Assembly: GCA_018816445.1 (NCBI GenBank)
Contig: JAHIVO010000061.1
Span: 305 to 64,304 of the forward strand
Length of the DNA: 64,000 bases
DNA from: Patescibacteria group bacterium
Lineage (GTDB): Bacteria; Patescibacteriota; Patescibacteriia; UBA10025; JAHIVO01
Reading direction: 5' to 3'
Of this stretch, positions 9,641 to 52,813 are shown one piece after another (the first letter of the stretch is position 1; each line of letters opens with the position of its first letter). Under the pieces are notes generated by a model. The model saw nothing but the letters and a program-made list of their open reading frames with translations, was not told the origin of the DNA and ran no database searches. A program made the position numbers and the translations under genes.

Positions 9641-10414
9641 ATGAAAATAAAAGAACTCACAAGTTCTGATAATGAGAAAATAAAGTCTTTGCGAAAATTG
9701 AACCAAAAGAAGTATCGGCTGGAGTCAAGACGTTTTTTTATTGAAAATGCGAAAATAATTAATGATGCTTTATCTTCTGGTACAGTTTTTGAATCATTAT
9801 TTATTACGGAGAATTTTGCAGAAAAAAATAAGGCCTGGCTGGACAAGATATTAAGCCAGGCAAAAACCACACAGTACTATTTAATAACGGACAGCATTAA
9901 TGCAACTTTTTCCAACCTTGATACTCCGCCTGGTATTGGGGCAGTTTATAAAAAAATTGAAAGGCCGATTAAATACAATTCGCATATAGTTTATCTGAAT
10001 GGCATTAATGATCCAGGTAACCTGGGTACAATTTTACGTTCAGCCCTTGCCTTTGGAATAAAAAATATTGTGCTGGACGAAGCGTGTGCGGATGTTTACA
10101 ATTTTAAAACTTTGCAGGCGGCCAAGGATTCAATTTTCAAATTAAACATTTCTTTTGATAAAAATTATCTGGAATTAAAGAAAATTAAATCAGCCATGAA
10201 AGTATATTCAACTAAAATGGATAATGCCGTATCAATGAAAAGCATGAAGCAGGATGATAAGTTCTGTTTGGTGCTAGGCAGTGAGGCGCATGGAGTGAGC
10301 CAGGCCATTCAGGATTTATCGGATGGTTTTGTTAAAATAGATATTAGACAAGACATGGAGTCATTAAACGTGGCCAGCGCTGCGGCCATTTTTTTCTATG
10401 AAATGTCCCAATAG
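9641..10414 (+). CDS. SpoU/TrmH-family RNA 2'-O-methyltransferase
   Basis: YLNGINDPGNLGTILRSALAFGI and LVLGSEAHGVS motifs. ATG at 9641 chosen to avoid overlap with the upstream gene. Confidence 0.7.
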   Translation: MKIKELTSSDNEKIKSLRKLNQKKYRLESRRFFIENAKIINDALSSGTVFESLFITENFAEKNKAWLDKILSQAKTTQYYLITDSINATFSNLDTPPGIGAVYKKIERPIKYNSHIVYLNGINDPGNLGTILRSALAFGIKNIVLDEACADVYNFKTLQAAKDSIFKLNISFDKNYLELKKIKSAMKVYSTKMDNAVSMKSMKQDDKFCLVLGSEAHGVSQAIQDLSDGFVKIDIRQDMESLNVASAAAIFFYEMSQ

Positions 10415-10540
10415 GCTTGACTGATTGTTTAAACTAGTATATACTTTATAAGCTATGAAATATTTATACGCTGAATTGAATAATAATTCAAATAACCGAC
10501 TCCTGCCGGCGTAATTTTGTTTATTTCAATAGCGTTAATT

Positions 10541-10568
10541 GCCGGCACCAAAAGAGCCGGTATTTTTT
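10541..10568 (+). terminator. Rho-independent terminator (CCGGC...GCCGG + T-run)
   Basis: Hairpin followed by TATTTTTTAT. Three self-complementary GCCGGC copies allow alternative pairings. Confidence 0.4.
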
Positions 10569-10672
10569 ATTCCTCCTTCGCCCTTCAGGCCACGGAGGAC
10601 TAGTAGTCTGGGGTAGTTCAATTGGTACCCCGTAAAGGATACGGGGCAGGCAACGCCGCAAGTCTATTAAAT

Positions 10673-10879
10673 TCTAGGGTAGTTTCCGCCAAAGGCGGAT
10701 CCGCCTATGGCGGACAATTGGCCCCGCCACAATGTTCTGGGATAGTTTAATTGGTAAAACCCTGCACTGTTAATGCAGTGATCCTGGTCCGAGTCCAGGT
10801 CCCAGAGTTTTGTGGCGGGGTAAAATAGAACGCTCCGCTGTTAACGGAGAGGTTGGAGGTCCAAGTCCTCCCCCTAGAG
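10673..10879 (+). tRNA. Outer tRNA-Asn (GTT)-like gene interrupted in the D-arm by ~135 nt that contain the complete inner tRNA-Asn
   Basis: Acceptor TCTAGGG (10673-10679) pairs with CCCTAGA (10872-10878). Anticodon stem CTCCG/CGGAG with loop CTGTTAA, T-arm GGAGG-TCCAAGT-CCTCC. D-stem GTTT (10682-85)/GAAC (10828-31). Insert clamped by CCCCGCCACA (10722-31)/TGTGGCGGGG (10811-20). Confidence 0.35.
10736..10807 (+). tRNA. tRNA-Asn (GTT), inner gene of a nested pair
   Basis: Cloverleaf by hand: acceptor TCTGGGA/TCCCAGA, D-stem GTTT/AAAC, anticodon stem CTGCA/TGCAG with loop CTGTTAA, T-arm CCTGG-TCCGAGT-CCAGG. 72 nt, no encoded CCA. T-loop has C at position 55, which is unusual. Confidence 0.65.
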
Positions 10880-11134
10880 TTCAGCGGGTAGATAAGTTAA
10901 CGGTAGTTTAGGTTCGCCCAATCATCCGATTGGGCGCCCCGTCGTATGACGGGGCAAGCCCTCCCCCTAGAGTTCGTCAGGTAGTTAAATTGTATAATAT
11001 TTTGGTTCGCCGTGAACCACTAAAGGGTTCACGGCGCCATGTACCCTTGAGTGGTACATGGCGATCCCAGCCCCCAGAGTTTAGCAGGCTTGTCCCGTAG
11101 GAGCGTCAGCGACTTACGGGATTCGAATCCTGCT

Positions 11135-11446
11135 CCCCGAGCCAATTGCCGAAAGTGACAACTTCTGTGGATAAGTCATAAAAGCCTTTAAATATCGGGT
11201 GAAAGTTGTACCCACTAGTTTTCTGTTTCGCAACTAAAATCTCCCCACCCAAGTAGGATTCGAATTTCTCATTCTTTTTAGCCTAAAATTCTTCCTTGTC
11301 CATCAGCAGTTTGAAGAGGTTTATAAGGTTTTCAGCCATGAGCCAGGCTTCGTCATCCGATATTTCTTCCCCATATTGCTTTTTGTAGATTTCCTTGAAT
11401 TTATCTATGTGATGTTGTTCAAGAGGCATTGATATCACCCCCTCAC
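11135..11446. repeat. Direct repeat copy 1 (~312 bp, ~90% identical to 15443-15756), encodes a 48-aa ORF
   Basis: Hand alignment of the two copies. They bracket the DGR-containing modules. Confidence 0.8.
11283..11429 (-). CDS. Conserved 48-aa protein (MPLEQHHIDKFKEIYKKQYGEEISDDEAWLMAENLINLFKLLMDKEEF)
   Basis: Strong RBS GAGGGGGTGATATCA before the ATG. The two copies differ at 12 nt but only 1 aa, which indicates purifying selection. Below the 60-aa track cutoff. Confidence 0.6.
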   Translation of the reverse strand: MPLEQHHIDKFKEIYKKQYGEEISDDEAWLMAENLINLFKLLMDKEEF

Positions 11447-12639: not shown

Positions 12640-12830
12640 CCATTGTTACTTTCCGCACTTTGTAATCCAAGAGCTAAAATCACGTTACCTCTTCATTTAA
12701 GAGCGGCTCCTTGCTGTAATCTCCGGACAGAGATTTCCAGAGAGCTGTTCTTAAATAACCGAAAGGTATCGCCTGGAAACCACAGTGGTTGACAGGCAGA
12801 TGTTTTTCAAAAACCAAGGAGGATGACGCC

Positions 12831-13448
12831 ATGGCAAAGACCATGACCCCATCTATGACTGATGGCCAGATTGACAAGGTTGTCGAAAACATCACAGCAG
12901 GGTTTCGCAAGAGACTTCGCGATCACAGGGATGAACTATCTTCAGACACAGTTCAAACCGTCCTCGGCCAGAAGGATTTTATTTCTGCCCTGTTCGCCGA
13001 GTTTCGCCAGCGCGTGGAAGCGGTCAGCAACATGATCGTTCGTAAGGTCAAGGTGGATCGCACCAGAACCTCGCAAGAGGCGCTGGACGTGACAGGACGT
13101 AAGCAGTATACCGACGACGATGTTGTGAAGTCCATGCCGAACGGCAAGGGCGATGAAACCGAGGTTATTTTCTTCAAGGTAGGTCGTACAATAAGTGACG
13201 ACGATCTGGAGAAAGAATATGAACTGCGCGGCCTGGTACCGGCTGATCCGTATTCACTCTGTGCCGTAAATGGAAATGATCCGGCGTTTGCCGATGAACA
13301 TCCCAATGGCACCCACTGGAAAGATTCCAACGGAAAATGGTGTTTCGCCTCCTTCGGCCGGTGGATCGACGAGCGCGGGGTGAGCGTCGACCGCGACGGT
13401 CGTGACTGGGCTGACTGCTGTTGGTTTGCCGGTGTCCGCAAGAATTAG
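12831..13448 (+). CDS. DGR target (variable) protein; C-terminal ligand-binding-type domain carries the VR
   Basis: AGGAGG RBS 8 nt before ATG 12831. C-terminus ...FGRWIDERGVSVDRDGRDWADCCWFAGVRKN is encoded by the VR. Confidence 0.75.
   Translation: MAKTMTPSMTDGQIDKVVENITAGFRKRLRDHRDELSSDTVQTVLGQKDFISALFAEFRQRVEAVSNMIVRKVKVDRTRTSQEALDVTGRKQYTDDDVVKSMPNGKGDETEVIFFKVGRTISDDDLEKEYELRGLVPADPYSLCAVNGNDPAFADEHPNGTHWKDSNGKWCFASFGRWIDERGVSVDRDGRDWADCCWFAGVRKN
13340..13441 (+). repeat. DGR variable repeat (VR)
   Basis: 102-nt homolog of TR 13778-13879. The 20 differences are all at TR adenines; every other position is identical. Confidence 0.85.
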
Positions 13449-13777: not shown

Positions 13778-13879
13778 ATAATTCGCCAACTTCAACCGGT
13801 GGAACGACGAGCGCAAGGTGAACGTCAACCGCAACGATAATGACTGGAATGACAACTGTTGGTTTGCCGGTGTCCGCAA
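13778..13879 (+). repeat. DGR template repeat (TR), noncoding, rich in AAC/AAT codons in the VR frame
   Basis: In the VR frame TR reads FNRWNDERKVNVNRNDNDWNDNCWFAGVRN. 20 of its 30 adenines are substituted in VR. Confidence 0.85.
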
Positions 13880-13901: not shown

Positions 13902-14309
13902 CTATTTTGGCGGATTGTTTTTCATCAGTTGTTTTCGCCACCCGCCCAGCATTTTTCCAACCTCTACCAATGGAGGCGTGAGTTGGCTATATTTTCTGGT
14001 ATCCAGAACTTTCATTTCCCAGGCGATCTGCAGGAAAAATTTTAGGGCATCAAGCTTGGTTGAAGCACGCTCCACTACAGAGAGCTTCTTTTCCCTGGGT
14101 GAGTATCCGGCCAGAAGAATTAGTTCCAGAGCATCATAAAACAGCAGGTCAATCTTAGACCCGAGCGTAAAGCGGGACAGCCGCGGCAGGTTCGTCAAAT
14201 TCGCGTGCCATAACCTATACCCTGCCGCCAGTTTCTGTATAATGGGAATATCGACCGACAAATCCCTGGGGGGGGTAATCTTATTAATATGAAAACGCTT
14301 TTGACTCAT
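13902..14309 (-). CDS. avd: Avd-like accessory variability determinant (four-helix-bundle protein)
   Basis: LLAGYSPREKK (compare NIAEGYGR), FFLQIAWEMKVL and LVEVGKMLGGWRKQL resemble Avd / 23S-rRNA-IVS proteins. On the strand opposite to TR and RT, overlapping the RT start by 21 nt. Confidence 0.6.
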   Translation of the reverse strand: MSQKRFHINKITPPRDLSVDIPIIQKLAAGYRLWHANLTNLPRLSRFTLGSKIDLLFYDALELILLAGYSPREKKLSVVERASTKLDALKFFLQIAWEMKVLDTRKYSQLTPPLVEVGKMLGGWRKQLMKNNPPK

Positions 14310-15284
14310 GGGTTTAAGGATATTGTATCGATAGACAATCTATTGTCAGCCTGGCGTGAGTTTGTCCCGGGCAAAGCCGGGAAAAAGGATGTCAGGGAAT
14401 TTTACCGCCATCTGGCTGATAATATTATATCACTCCACGAGGAGCTTGAAAACGACACTTACCGACATGGCGGGTATATTCACTTCAGGATCTCCGATCC
14501 CAAGCCTAGGGATATTCACAAGGCAACCATCCGGGACAGGCTGGTGCACCATGCCATCTATCGCGTACTCTACCCCTTTTTAAGTGATACATTCATCGCC
14601 GATTCATATTCCTGCCAGTTGGGAAAGGGAACGCATCGGGCTATCAGAAGATTCCGGACTTTCGCCGGTCAGGTAAGCAGAAACAATACCCAAACCTGCT
14701 GGATATTAAAATGCGATATCAGGAAATTCTTTGCCAGCATTGACCATGCTATATTGATGAATATGCTAAGTGAGTATATTACTGACCAAAGAATTAATAC
14801 TTTATTGCGCGAGGTTATCCAGAGTTTCTGCTGGCAACCGGGCAAAGGTTTGCCGCTTGGCAATCTGACATCCCAGTTGTTCGTTAATGTGTATATGAAT
14901 GAGTTTGACCAATTCATGAAACATACATTAAAAGTCAAGTATTATCTGCGTTATGCTGATGATTTTGTTGTAATGTCTGATAACAGATCGTGGTTAAAAG
15001 GACTCATACCGATTATCAGTAATTTTCTGACGGTCAAACTCAAACTCACGCTTCATCCGAGCAAGGTATTTATTAAAACACTGGCTTCAGGAGTTGATTT
15101 TCTGGGCTGGGTGCATTTTCCGTATCATCAGGTACTCCGCACTTCCTCCAAAAGGCGCATGTTAAACAGGATTACTGAAAACCCGGAAACATCTACTATG
15201 CAGTCATATTTGGGTCTACTACAACATGGCAATGCATACAAGCTGGCAGAGCAGGTGATTAATCAGACCTATCTATGGAAGTAA
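14289..15284 (+). CDS. DGR reverse transcriptase
   Basis: RT motifs 1-7, YADDFVV (YxDD). The DGR-specific LGNLTSQLFVNVY ([I/L]GxxxSQ) replaces the retroviral QGxxxSP. N-terminal NLLSAWREF...VHHAIYRVL is typical of DGR RTs. Confidence 0.85.
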   Translation: MKTLLTHGFKDIVSIDNLLSAWREFVPGKAGKKDVREFYRHLADNIISLHEELENDTYRHGGYIHFRISDPKPRDIHKATIRDRLVHHAIYRVLYPFLSDTFIADSYSCQLGKGTHRAIRRFRTFAGQVSRNNTQTCWILKCDIRKFFASIDHAILMNMLSEYITDQRINTLLREVIQSFCWQPGKGLPLGNLTSQLFVNVYMNEFDQFMKHTLKVKYYLRYADDFVVMSDNRSWLKGLIPIISNFLTVKLKLTLHPSKVFIKTLASGVDFLGWVHFPYHQVLRTSSKRRMLNRITENPETSTMQSYLGLLQHGNAYKLAEQVINQTYLWK

Positions 15285-15409
15285 CCTTATCCACATTTAT
15301 TGTTGGAATACGCAATTGCAAACAAAGTGATTGAAGTATACAGTAAGATTGGGGCACGAGAATATTTCTTAATTTATTTAAAACAGTTTTCAGGAGAATT
15401 AAGTTGTCG

Positions 15410-15451
15410 CTTCTCGCAAAAAAGTTCTAACGTCCTCTACGACCCCGAGCC
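15410..15451. repeat. Module-boundary motif copy M2
   Basis: CTTCTCGCAAAAAGTTCTAACGTCCTCTACGACCCCGAGCCA, immediately followed by direct-repeat copy 2. Confidence 0.6.
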
Positions 15452-15756
15452 AATTGCCTAGAACGACAACTTACTGTGGATAAGTCATATTAACCTTTAA
15501 ATATCGGGTGAAAGTTGTACCCAAGAGTTTTCTATTTACGCAATTAAAATCTCCCCACCCAGGTAGGATTCGAATTTCTCTATCTTTTTAGTCTAAAATT
15601 CTTCCTTATCCATCAGCAGTTTGAAAAGATTTATCAAGTTATTGGCCATGAGCCAGGCTTCGTCGTCCGATATTTCTTCTCCATATTGTTTTTTGTAGAT
15701 TTCCTTAAATTTATCTATGTGATGTTGTTCAAGAGGCATTGGTTATCACCCCCTTT
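15443..15756. repeat. Direct repeat copy 2 (~312 bp)
   Basis: Aligned to 11135-11446 by hand. Confidence 0.8.
15593..15739 (-). CDS. Conserved 48-aa protein, copy 2 (differs at one residue, E33N)
   Basis: Same RBS and frame as copy 1. 10 of the 12 nucleotide differences are synonymous. Confidence 0.6.
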   Translation of the reverse strand: MPLEQHHIDKFKEIYKKQYGEEISDDEAWLMANNLINLFKLLMDKEEF

Positions 15757-27781: not shown

Positions 27782-28030
27782 TTAATATTACGCTGAAGTA
27801 AGCCAAATGAGTCTCAGCCAGAGGCTGATCCGCCTTTGGCGGAAATAATGAGACACCCCTATGTACTGTCTTACTTGTTCCGTTACGAGCGCGAGTTTAC
27901 GGGATTTGTCTCATTTCCTGCCCCGTTGAATGACGGGGTCGCTTCTTGAAAGACTCCCTAAAAGTTTTTGAAAAAAGCAAGCCTAATCTCGGCTCTTATT
28001 AAAAGGGATTAGCTGCTCTGTAAACAACTA

Positions 28031-51446: not shown

Positions 51447-51523
51447 TGGTAGCAGGGGGGGGATTCGAACCCCCGGCCTAAGGCTTATGAGTCCTTCGCT
51501 CTAACCAACTGAGCTACCCTGCC
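51447..51523 (-). tRNA. Elongator tRNA-Met or tRNA-Ile2 (anticodon CAT), CCA encoded
   Basis: Folded by hand: acceptor GGCAGGG/CCCTGCT (G1-U72), D-arm GCTC-AGTTGGTTA-GAGC, anticodon loop CTCATAA, T-arm GGGGG-TTCGAAT-CCCCC. Confidence 0.75.
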
Positions 51524-51529
51524 GCGTCA

Positions 51530-51589
51530 GAATCGTACTTCGCCTTCCGTTTCCAGTAATGGCTGAAAACTACAGGCTTCGTACGATTC
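51530..51589 (-). promoter_or_regulatory. Conserved ~60-nt structured leader upstream of tRNA-CAT (copy 1)
   Basis: About 85% identical to 52135-52194. Terminal 9-bp inverted repeat GAATCGTAC...GTACGATTC. Confidence 0.4.
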
Positions 51590-51684
51590 TTCTTTGCCTC
51601 GCTCAAACTACTATTTGAGCTCGGTTTTTATTTTAATAGTTGACTTACCAGCCAAAACTTCCAAGGGAAACGAAGGTTGGTTAT

Positions 51685-51927
51685 TTAAATTAATCTTTTA
51701 TTCATAAAAGCTATACCAGATCCTGACTTTAAATACCTTTCAAAGGTTAATGCTTTCTGTTTGGTAGTAAAAACGCAATAAAAGATTAATTTCCAAGGTT
51801 TATATTTTGCAGAATAAGTAGTACTTTTTGAGTTATGTTTTTTAAGGCGCTGCTGTAGATTAGTGGTATATCCTTTATATATCATTTTTGGATATTTTAT
51901 ACTCCTTAATATATAAACTATATGCAT
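51685..51927 (-). CDS. GIY-YIG nuclease family protein
   Basis: MHIVYILRS...IYKGYTTNLQQRLKKHN. Confidence 0.55.
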   Translation of the reverse strand: MHIVYILRSIKYPKMIYKGYTTNLQQRLKKHNSKSTTYSAKYKPWKLIFYCVFTTKQKALTFERYLKSGSGIAFMNKRLI

Positions 51928-52052
51928 ATTATTTCTTGATGCCCACCTTCGCTAAAGCTTCGGTGGACAACCTTCTCTGAATGGTGAAATACTTAGTTGG
52001 TAATTTATATATGGTTGGCGTGCCAACCGAAGCTTCCGAAGGAAGCGGAGGT

Positions 52053-52127
52053 TGGTTGCCGGGGGGGGATTCGAACCCCCGACCTCGGGATTATGAGCCC
52101 CGCGAGCTGCCACTGCTCTACCCGGCG
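52053..52127 (-). tRNA. Initiator tRNA-fMet (CAT), CCA encoded
   Basis: C1xA72 mismatch, three consecutive G-C pairs in the anticodon stem (CGGGG/TCCCG), anticodon loop CTCATAA, T-arm GGGGG-TTCGAAT-CCCCC. Confidence 0.75.
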
Positions 52128-52134
52128 GCGTTAG

Positions 52135-52194
52135 GAATCGCACTCCGCCTTCCGTTTCCAGTAGTGGCTGAAAACTGCAGGCTGCGTGCGTTTC
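52135..52194 (-). promoter_or_regulatory. Conserved ~60-nt structured leader upstream of tRNA-CAT (copy 2)
   Basis: GAATCGCACTCCGCCTTCCGTTTCCAGTAGTGGCTGAAAACTGCAGGCTGCGTGCGTTTC. Confidence 0.4.
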
Positions 52195-52387
52195 CTCCTT
52201 TCCTCGCAAATATCTCTTAACTTTTAGCTTGGATTTTTTTATTTAGTTAAAATCAAAGTATCTCTAGTATTATAAGTTATTAAAGATAAAATAGCAAGGT
52301 TTAGGTATTTATTGGTGCCGGGAGAGACCCCGTATAATTTCTCACTACGTTCAAAATATACGGGGCAGGGAGTCTCACTAATTCACA

Positions 52388-52569
52388 TGCCGAAGGTGGG
52401 AGTCGAACCCACACGAGGTTGCCCTCATGCGATTTTGAGTCGCACGCGCCCGCCTGCCTCTGCCGAGAGGGAGAGTCGAACTCCCATGAGGTTGCCCCCG
52501 CAGGATTTTGAGTCCTGTGCGTCTACCAGTTCCGCCATCTCGGCAAAGGCAGGCGGGCGCCACTTCGGC
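52388..52569 (-). tRNA. Outer tRNA-Leu (CAA)-like gene with the D-arm replaced by a 13-bp clamp helix that carries the inner tRNA-Leu
   Basis: Acceptor GCCGAAG (rc 52563-69)/CTTCGGC (rc 52389-95). Clamp GCGCCCGCCTGCC/GGCAGGCGGGCGC. Anticodon stem TGCGA/TCGCA with loop CTCAAAA, T-arm GTGGG-TTCGACT-CCCAC. Confidence 0.4.
52461..52544 (-). tRNA. tRNA-Leu (CAA), inner gene of a nested pair
   Basis: Acceptor GCCGAGA/TCTCGGC, D-arm GCGGAACTGGTAGACGC, anticodon stem CAGGA/TCCTG with loop CTCAAAA, 15-nt variable arm, T-arm GGGAG-TTCGACT-CTCCC. 84 nt. Confidence 0.75.
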
Positions 52570-52813
52570 TTATTAACTATTTCGCTAATTACGTCTACCA
52601 ATGGAGTTTATCCCGTACTTGGAGTGGTAGCGACATAGTACGGGACCATCCCGGCATGTAGTTATTTGAATGAATCAGCCATTAAAATATATTAGGCCCC
52701 TCGCTTGCGCTCGGGGTGAGTTTGTTGAGTTGATCAACAAACTCAATTCTAAATAAAAACGCTGTTTTTGTCAATGAATATTTGCTATAATATACGTATC
52801 AATTTACCAATAT

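Follow-up and report, generated by a model that had tools for sequence, protein, structure and literature searches.

A 64,000-nt stretch of DNA from a Patescibacteria group bacterium (positions 305 to 64,304 of contig JAHIVO010000061.1, assembly GCA_018816445.1; hereafter the window) carries at 10607-11144 an array of tRNA-Asn genes and gene pieces that lie inside one another. We interpret this array as a multi-generation tRNA-Asn nest that arose by repeated insertion of hairpin-armed, tRNA-carrying cassettes into the loops of cognate tRNA genes, and assign this interpretation a probability of about 0.55. The window also contains a nest of tRNA-Leu genes, and in both nests a complete tRNA stands between inverted GC-rich arms. 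Coordinates are those of the window, and L-numbers (L009, L047, L111 and so on) are the labels of comparison loci or contigs.

Nested organization of the tRNA-Asn array

Three tRNA-Asn 5' starts, TCTGGGG, TCTAGGG and TCTGGGA, are found within 10560-11160 (at 10607, 10673 and 10736, respectively), and their perfect 7-bp acceptor partners are arranged the other way round, at 11072-78 for the first, 10873-79 for the second and 10800-06 for the third. The array is ordered as a nest, with the 5' pieces running from outer to inner and the 3' pieces from inner to outer. The first-pass annotation had described a scrambled hotspot of tRNA duplication and integration; repeated duplication or replacement of tRNA-Asn is borne out, but the pieces are strictly nested rather than scrambled. 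The elements that it had listed all exist, with coordinates displaced by 1-11 nt, among them four ends of the form CCC(C/T)AGAG or CCCAGAG followed by TT (10801-07, 10873-79, 10966-72 and 11073-79). TCTRGGRTAGTT and CCCYAGAGTT each occur three times, against 0.01 and 0.24 expected occurrences, and the RNA fold of 10560-11160 has an energy of -265 kcal/mol (z = -11.2). Over 1.1 kb around the array an ENA assembly is identical and an NCBI metagenome-assembled genome differs by one base, while a Logan contig matches the array region over the 314 nt that it covers; given this agreement of three independent assemblies but for one base, the array is not an assembly artefact.

The innermost unit, tRNA-Asn C (10736-10807; all features of the array are on the plus strand), has a GTT anticodon and no encoded CCA. 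It was identified by ARAGORN and by Rfam (RF00005, 64.7 bits) and is the sole canonical tRNA of the array, that is, the only contiguous cloverleaf above the RF00005 gathering score of 29 bits; it is presumed to be the working tRNA-Asn gene. Of two foldable tRNA-Asn genes proposed earlier, only this one is clean. The second Rfam match, at 10817-10875, reaches 28.9 bits, lacks the 5' acceptor strand and represents just the 3' two-thirds of a tRNA, with the remaining 5' part located 134 nt upstream. An inverted-repeat search showed that tRNA C is bracketed by a 5' arm, CCCCGCCACAA (10722-10732, within a 21-nt inverted repeat with 10800-10820), and a 3' arm, TTGTGGCGGGG (10810-10820). The two form an 11-bp GC-rich helix inside the D-loop of the next tRNA outwards, shell B. 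Helix and tRNA C are placed directly after AATTGG of shell B, which corresponds to a D-loop insertion after G18-G19. The arms covary with those of L111 (CCCCGCCGCAAAG / CTTGCGGCGGAG).

Shell B begins with TCTAGGG TA GTTT (10673-10685), recognised from its pairings and by ARAGORN as the 5' strands of the acceptor and D-stems: the former pairs 7/7 with CCCTAGA (10873-79), and GTTT pairs with GAAC (10828-31). Its 3' part (10828-79) consists of the D-stem 3' strand, anticodon arm (GTT) and variable region (10828-10853), which are common to shells A and B, contribute to the 28.9-bit match and are identical in 26/26 nt to the tRNA-Asn of L009, followed by the T-arm GGAGG-TCCAAGT-CCTCC, the acceptor 3' strand and G73 (10854-10879, from Rfam and ARAGORN). 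When 10686-10820 is deleted, ARAGORN calls a tRNA-Asn(GTT) from shell B; removal of the cassette alone does not suffice, because twin 15-nt hairpins of the form TCCGCC-NNN-GGCGGA (10685-10714; 10685-99 and 10700-14) remain in the D-loop.

Shell A starts with TCTGGGGTAGTTCAATTGGTA (the 5' strands of the acceptor and D-stems plus the D-loop), the acceptor-like 5' element that had been considered an orphan; it occupies 10607-10627 rather than 10608-10628, is identical in 20/21 nt to the intact tRNA-Asn of L009 and pairs 7/7 with 11072-78. Hairpin H1, CCCCGTA-AAGGA-TACGGGG (10628-10646), is inserted after its D-loop. The joined pieces 10607-27, 10828-53 and 11062-79 are called as tRNA-Asn by ARAGORN. 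The last of these belongs to unit E (10973-11079), the 3' piece of shell A, in which a T-loop of the form GGTT...CGATCC is split by two hairpins and is followed by the acceptor 3' strand CCCCAGA plus G (11072-79). Between shell B and unit E lies unit D (10880-10972), a degenerate tRNA-like unit whose T-loop, GGTT...CAAGC, also holds two hairpins (10915-36 and 10937-54), both homologous to hairpins of L009 unit 2 with compensatory changes. Unit D ends in a second copy of the 3' end of shell B, and the resulting 21-nt duplication from T-loop to 3' end (10862-82 / 10955-75) includes the exact 16-bp duplicate CCTCCCCCTAGAGTTC noted before, which lies at 10867-82/10960-75 and not at 10865-80/10949-64.

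In both T-loops the hairpin pairs (10915-54 and 11008-61) are inserted exactly between T55 and C56. The long hairpins with 7-nt loops do have fully complementary 11-bp arms (11008-18/11026-36 and 11035-45/11053-63; 100%), but they are such T-loop insertions and not extended T-arms, as had been thought. An outermost, CCA-ending relic without a 5' partner closes the array (11083-11144): its T-stem AGCAGG / CCTGCT encloses a hairpin (11092-11122) and TCGAAT, and TCCCCGA-G-CCA follows, with the CCA encoded. The homologous unit in L009 has a compensated stem and a conserved loop, and the outer shells of L073 and L111 likewise end in ...GAGCCA. For units D and E, the history could be reconstructed in part. 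In the window, damage increases with the age of the shell, from C, which is intact, through B, whose D-loop is cluttered, to A, which is split into three.

A separate peculiarity is C at T-loop position 55 in tRNA C (TCCGAGT, 10785-10799) and in shell B (TCCAAGT, 10855-10871). U or pseudouridine is nearly universal at this position, and a normal TTCGA is present in the window's tRNA-Met and tRNA-Leu genes.

Relatives of the locus and its ancestral state

L009, L246 and L247 share the synteny of the locus (VTT, TrmH and, in L009, the leader described below) and display different states of it. L009 has an uninterrupted tRNA-Asn that is 92% identical to the rejoined shell A and is followed by a hairpin-laden pseudo-unit; L246 has a different tRNA-Asn allele and a similar pseudo-unit; in L247 the only tRNA is of the C type and follows a remnant of the 5' arm, CTCCGCCACAAT. 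Shell A was thus the resident, ancestral gene, and the locus turns over fast. A genome search with the TrmH protein as query returned nothing. The closest relatives of the three generations are the L009 tRNA-Asn for shell A (92%), the inner tRNA of L073 for shell B (89%) and the outer tRNA of L073 for C (86%). By sequence identity the three generations belong to three different tRNA-Asn lineages, of which those of B and C are nested in the opposite order in L073. As each generation is closer to a tRNA of another genome than to the adjacent shell, import of cassettes is favoured over copying of the resident gene.

A second nest of tRNA-Leu(CAA)

The tRNA-Leu(CAA) nest (minus strand, 52313-52655; from ARAGORN and reading of the sequence) has three levels. 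The inner tRNA-Leu (52544-52461) lies between the arms CCCGCCTGCC (52557-48) and GGCAGGCGGG (52458-49), the outer tRNA-Leu(CAA), with its 5' part at 52569-58 and its 3' part at 52448-52388, holds this cassette in its D-arm, and a CCA-ending Leu shell (52655-38 and 52327-13) is outermost. Cargo and outer tRNA share the anticodon CAA. ARAGORN reports two overlapping tRNA-Leu genes here, 52388-52463 and 52460-52545, the first of which is a false call, confined to the 3' part of the outer, interrupted tRNA-Leu; this outer tRNA is not called after cassette removal, because its D-loop is gone. Compared with the family consensus arms, CCTGCCCGCC...GGCAGGCGGG, the Leu 3' arm is exact and the 5' arm is a minor variant, while the Asn arms share only the CCGCC/GGCGG core; the Asn-type variant was met again only in L111, in addition to the remnant in L247.

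The two nests also have in common a hairpin, GTCCCGTA...TACGGGAT, with the conserved loop GGAG..AGCGAC, which is found in the terminal Asn relic (11092-11122, plus strand) and in the outermost Leu shell (52610-52646). It has the same DNA orientation at both nests and is therefore opposite relative to the tRNAs. L009 contains a copy with a compensated stem.

Distribution of the cassettes in genomes and metagenomes

One genome per species (185,579 genomes) was scanned for two tRNA-Asn 5' starts less than one tRNA length apart. This yielded 114 loci, in only four of which a tRNA is present, all from Patescibacteria. L047, L073 and L106 have a cassette in the anticodon loop with the arms CCTGCCCGC(C)...GGCAGGCGGG, and L111 has the D-loop cassette type of the window with a covarying helix. 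A metagenome scan for the arms CCTGCCCGCC...GGCAGGCGGG plus a T-loop gave at least 120 loci, and a complete tRNA lies between the arms in 115 of the 120 listed; the metagenome counts given below all refer to these listed loci. The cargo belongs to at least 12 types (Arg, Thr, Leu, Val, Pro, Ile, Gly, Asn, Gln, Glu, Cys and Ala). The inserts, tRNA plus helix, measure 100-130 nt, and each cassette border adjoins the first base pair of a single uninterrupted helix, which extends to about position 17 of the arms with TA/AT and GC/CG swaps. With a search pattern that permitted Watson-Crick pairs at arm positions 3 and 7, a U.G pair was found at position 3 in 112/115 loci and a C.A pair at position 7 in 111/115.

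When exactly the stretch that begins with the first C and ends with the last G of the arms is removed, a tRNA is restored, as called by ARAGORN across the junction, in 61/115 loci; at the former insertion site the restored tRNA has an anticodon loop of 7 nt or else a D- or T-loop of normal form (D-loop in 33, anticodon loop in 21 and T-loop in 7). The restored outer tRNA has the anticodon of the cargo in 53 of these 61. The matches listed also include at least seven multi-level nests, with up to four generations, and at least four 'empty' arm hairpins (L160, L136, L207 and L226); empty hairpins are present in the anticodon loops of L009 and L246 as well.

No match to the arm pattern was found in viral contigs. 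In a blastn comparison, phages gave only generic tRNA-Asn similarity and plasmids gave nothing, which ruled out a phage or plasmid origin. The viral matches to the 16-mer GGCGATGGCAGGCGGG (58 loci, 61 sites, in contigs with a mean GC content of 59%), none of them beside a tRNA, are read as chance. As by-catch, the genome scan retrieved regularly spaced direct repeats containing TCYGGGRTAGTT (e.g., GACCTCTGGGGTAGTTTGTCC in L013) that are unrelated to tRNAs. They occur in L013, L024, L058 and other Lachnospiraceae loci, in L021 and L060 (Ruminococcus) and in L026 (Gemmatimonadota), and may be CRISPR-like or other interspersed repeats.

Proposed insertion of cassettes and fate of the outer shells

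In the process that we propose, a non-autonomous cassette carrying a complete tRNA would enter the loop of a resident tRNA gene with the same anticodon and inactivate it, an insertion that could be tolerated because the cassette supplies a replacement tRNA. The array would be transcribed as one unit, from which RNase P and 3' processing would free the innermost tRNA for decoding; the inactivated shells would drift, with truncations, loss of D-loops and odd T-loops, and the decaying shells would become landing sites for other small palindromic repeats. The lack of target duplication and the restriction to cloverleaf loops suggest that the target is recognised as a folded single strand, DNA or RNA, and since the cassette encodes no protein it would depend on an enzyme supplied in trans. 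The cassettes would be imported from related bacteria rather than copied from the resident gene. In agreement with decay, the outer shells are not recognisable as tRNAs at 54/115 loci; the outer shell of L106 lacks the 3' half of the anticodon arm, that of L047 lacks the T-loop consensus, and the outer acceptor stem of L073 has two mismatches.

Several observations weigh against this process. About half of the outer tRNAs are perfect cloverleaves, even though the median number of positions at which they differ from the inner tRNA is about 18; shells A and B of the window retain 7/7 acceptor stems; and the small hairpins in 'dead' shells sit in loops only. Intact shells and loop-only hairpins could equally fit shells under selection, so that these features fit either recent invasion combined with recognition of a folded target or functional shells. 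Each cargo resembles its own outer tRNA slightly more than it does other outer tRNAs (p = 6e-4), and inner and outer tRNA sequences are the same in L141 and L147; both findings are as compatible with local copying as with import. The anticodon is always common to cargo and target although the arms are shared by all tRNA types; selection alone could account for this, because a non-cognate insertion would kill an essential single-copy gene. Neighbour-gene clustering linked no transposase, integrase or other enzyme to the nests, and no close strains were found that differ in the presence of a cassette.

The same observations bring in a possible though rather unlikely alternative, namely that a nest is a functional composite precursor and the cassette a new bacterial tRNA intervening sequence that is spliced, or excised without re-ligation. 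In variants of this explanation each transcript yields two or more usable tRNAs, or the shells form a scaffold that aids the processing of the inner tRNA or stabilises it. Exact excision at the arm borders with restoration of normal loops at 61/115 loci is in its favour, as is the retention of at least 21 pairs by 37 of the 53 cognate outer tRNAs despite their many differences from the cargo (stem integrity was scored by pair counts, as ARAGORN brackets leave out mismatches). So are the compensated acceptor stems that each shell has of its own (A, B and C of the window, L047 and L111), the confinement of insertions to loops, the strongly conserved non-Watson-Crick arm pairs, as expected of a protein recognition site, and the finding that outermost shells often encode CCA and inner tRNAs often do not.

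However, no bacterial pathway is known to cut at these sites and re-ligate. Cuts by RNase P or RNase Z would leave halves, and unless these were ligated, nests in the anticodon loop could not decode. Even so, the outer tRNAs of such nests are as intact as those of D-loop nests: 10/19 with an interrupted anticodon loop have intact outer shells, about the same proportion as the 14/25 with an interrupted D-loop, in an alignment-based classification of insertion sites that left 66/115 loci unclear. This equality speaks against a functional, unligated two-piece outer tRNA. A functional role is also at odds with the broken shells (the truncation in L106, the loss of the D-loop from the window's outer tRNA-Leu, the split of shell A into three and the 54/115 unrecognisable shells) and with the rise of damage with shell age in the window. 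Moreover, a survey of 95 complete Patescibacteria genomes, although not designed for this element, attributed missing tRNAs to group I introns only (PMC13011429).

The relatedness of inner and outer tRNAs bears on a further explanation, which we regard as improbable: an 'empty' arm hairpin, itself mobile, inserts into a tRNA loop and then receives between its arms a copy of the same gene through repair or template switching, so that nests arise on site and no tRNA travels between genomes. This would fit arms that are conserved across at least 12 tRNA types with a cargo that is always cognate, the existence of empty hairpins, the identical pairs in L141 and L147, the closeness of each cargo to its own outer tRNA and the rare T-loop C55 shared by B and C of the window. 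It would also fit L047 and L106, which have identical 21- and 19-nt flanks around different tRNAs, the anticodon stem of each being that of its own outer tRNA. On the other hand, we are aware of no known mechanism that gives the order 5' half, arm, whole gene, arm, 3' half, most inner/outer pairs are only about 75% identical, and the window generations are closer to tRNAs of other genomes than to the neighbouring shell, with the order of B and C reversed in L073. An apparently stronger conservation of inner than of outer tRNAs, obtained from nest pairs chosen by inner-tRNA identity, was dropped, because this choice biases the result; unbiased group means showed no consistent difference.

We consider the chances about even that the cassette represents a new, Patescibacteria-specific class of element, either (a) a protein-dependent tRNA intervening sequence or (b) a structure-guided mobile element that replaces the tRNA. 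In the first case it would be a third kind of bacterial tRNA intron, itself encoding a tRNA, and its splicing or processing would imply an unrecognised bacterial tRNA maturation pathway. In the second case, folded tRNA-gene loops would be recognised and competing tRNA alleles would invade one another across genomes; a mobile cassette would be a minimal selfish element, made indispensable by replacing an essential single-copy gene, and would explain a rapid turnover of tRNA alleles in reduced genomes. The nest loci are mis-annotated by tRNA finders, which touches tRNA-based estimates of genome completeness for Patescibacteria, and the conserved arm sequence offers a handle for finding the partner enzyme.

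Comparison with known tRNA introns and palindromic elements

No single RNA family explains all units of the array: an Rfam search of 10400-11300, at gathering thresholds and then permissively at E values up to 10, matched only tRNA. GOLLD, ROOL, YrlA, tmRNA, T-box and group I intron identities were ruled out on this basis, and neither ARAGORN nor Rfam revealed a tmRNA or another described tRNA-like RNA.

In layout, the nearest analogues are the non-canonical tRNA introns and the split and permuted tRNA genes of archaea, known from Thermoproteales, Nanoarchaeum and Caldivirga (PMC3978253, PMC4033280). As in the nests, the D-, anticodon- and T-loops are interrupted, removal restores the cloverleaf and related inserts have spread among tRNA genes; here, in contrast, the host is bacterial, the insert is a whole cognate tRNA and many outer genes are degenerate. 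The gene content of the window (TopA, DprA, ParB, Lgt and DsbA) is bacterial, with homologues that belong to named Patescibacteria, and an archaeal host with bulge-helix-bulge (BHB) splicing was rejected for this reason. The window was placed in the Patescibacteria metagenome-assembled genome GCA_018813575.1. The BHB geometry differs as well, since the candidate splice sites here lie opposite one another where a single helix begins; inspection of the cassette borders, made without a dedicated BHB search tool, found no BHB motif.

Group I introns interrupt tRNA-Asn and tRNA-Asp of Patescibacteria at 35/36 (PMC13011429). The phylum, the tRNA (Asn) and, for some cassettes, the anticodon-loop positions (34/35 to 36/37) are the same, whereas the inserts described here differ in size (100-130 nt), have a tRNA and a helix in place of a ribozyme core and also occupy D- and T-loops; the core model RF00028 had no match over 10400-11300 at E values up to 10.

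Small palindromic mobile repeats that insert into genes, such as Rickettsia palindromic elements, repetitive extragenic palindromic (REP) and miniature inverted-repeat transposable element (MITE)-like repeats and mitochondrial GC clusters, resemble the cassettes in being short GC-rich hairpins that encode no protein, are dispersed and are tolerated inside structured genes. We know of none that carries a complete tRNA or targets the loops of cognate tRNA genes. One such repeat is present in the array itself: TCCGCC-NNN-GGCGGA has three copies in the window (10685-99, 10700-14 and the intergenic 27829-43), against 0.02 expected, and the same twin element occurs in the outer D-loops of L133, L150, L153 and L207. 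It is a dispersed palindromic (REP/MITE-like) repeat that accounts for small hairpins only and not for the tRNA cassette. The intergenic copy is itself part of a twin hairpin, TCAGCC-AGA-GGCTGA TCCGCC-TTT-GGCGGA (27810-27850), with the flanks GAGTCTC / GAGAC.

The intervening sequences of bacterial 23S rRNA are removed by RNase III without re-ligation. They too are extended helices at a loop of a structured RNA, and a host RNA could likewise hold together by its own stems; the cargo of the nests, however, is a tRNA, a tRNA cut in its anticodon loop cannot decode, and excision from the nests is only hypothetical. We could find no category into which a complete tRNA gene in the loop of a cognate tRNA gene falls, and neither nests of tRNAs within tRNAs nor the arm motif were found described in the full-text literature, where the work on group I introns alone was relevant, with the reservation that most subscription journals lie outside its coverage and earlier work is possible.

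The module boundary at the end of the array

The 3' end of the array merges, as first described, into copy 1 of a direct repeat (11135-11443, plus strand), which is 90% identical to copy 2 (15443-15754). The motif CCCCGAGCCA occurs at 11135, 12485 and 15443, and the 312-nt direct repeats that start with it bracket a module with a diversity-generating retroelement (DGR). The proposal that the array may be the attachment region of neighbouring modules fits only its last unit, which marks the module boundary, and leaves the nested 5' pieces and the inverted arms unexplained.

This boundary is an argument for a different origin, in which the array is debris of site-specific integrases that used tRNA-Asn as attachment (att) site, with 3' duplications and later compaction by deletions. 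Apart from the three copies of the terminal motif and the repeats around the DGR module, the 21-nt duplication at 10862-82 / 10955-75 would be in line with it. Integration would be expected to duplicate only 3' parts, yet three 5' parts are present, in strict nested order, and the inner unit is a complete tRNA that, flanked by an inverted repeat, occupies a D-loop; the sites in tRNA genes that integrases are known to use are the anticodon loop, the T-loop and the 3' end. In addition, the adjacent open reading frames (ORFs) that were scanned have no integrase domain, the units are less than 100 nt apart with no island between them, and the same architecture, with conserved arms and no island inside, is found in more than 100 loci. 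We thus consider integrase debris very improbable as an explanation of the array, and the model fits only the terminal unit. Known tRNA fragments left by integrase-mediated integration (PMC9897764) are similar in that partial copies lie beside an intact gene, as with CCCCGAGCCA repeated at the module borders of the window, and dissimilar in the nested 5' and 3' halves, the missing island between copies and the conserved inverted arms found here.

Within the module, the DGR comprises a target ORF (12789-13448) with its variable repeat (VR, 13344-13441), a template repeat (TR, 13782-13879) from which the VR differs at TR adenines, bAvd (13902-14309, minus strand) and the reverse transcriptase gene (14289-15284). 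Each 312-nt repeat holds a minus-strand ORF of about 48 aa, and a motif of 56 nt with CCCCGAGCCA at its end is present at both 12439-94 and 15397-15452.

The leader region ahead of the array

A sigma-70-like promoter, TTGACT-17-TATACT (10417-10445, plus strand; 10/12 consensus matches), precedes the array, and the same arrangement is seen in L009, L246, L247, L047, L106 and L111. It is followed on the same strand by a leader ORF rich in Asn codons, MKYLYAELNNNSNNRLLPA* (10455-10514, read from the sequence), and by an intrinsic terminator, GCCGGC...GCCGG plus a T run (10541-10568), as the attenuator part; GCCGGC is found both inside the leader ORF (10505-10510) and in the terminator stem. Leader ORFs with Asn runs (NNNNNN, NNNNNNNNN and similar) stand ahead of tRNA-Asn in eight further loci, so that promoter, leader ORF and terminator are combined in nine Patescibacteria loci in all: the window (10417-10568), L009 (2560-2710), L246 (1975-2120), L247 (1130-1270), L047, L073, L106, L111 and L234. 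The region looks like a ribosome-mediated attenuation system through which the supply of Asn-tRNA would control a tRNA gene, for which we know of no precedent. Ahead of nests of other tRNA types, cognate-codon leader peptides gave no signal above background.

Neighbouring genes

Apart from spurious ORFs spanning tRNAs, the only recurrent neighbour family of the nests is a small GIY-YIG ORF, found at 9-12 of the 120 loci and within 700 nt of the nest in 7 of 12 copies (p of about 0.03). In the window, a region on the minus strand (51447-52207) holds two tRNA-Met genes that are 85% identical. Each is preceded by a hairpin-forming leader of about 73 nt (51530-51602 and 52135-52207; 86% identical) that matches no Rfam family, and between them lies a GIY-YIG-like ORF of 66 aa (51685-51885) flanked by 47-nt repeats (51636-82 and 52011-57).

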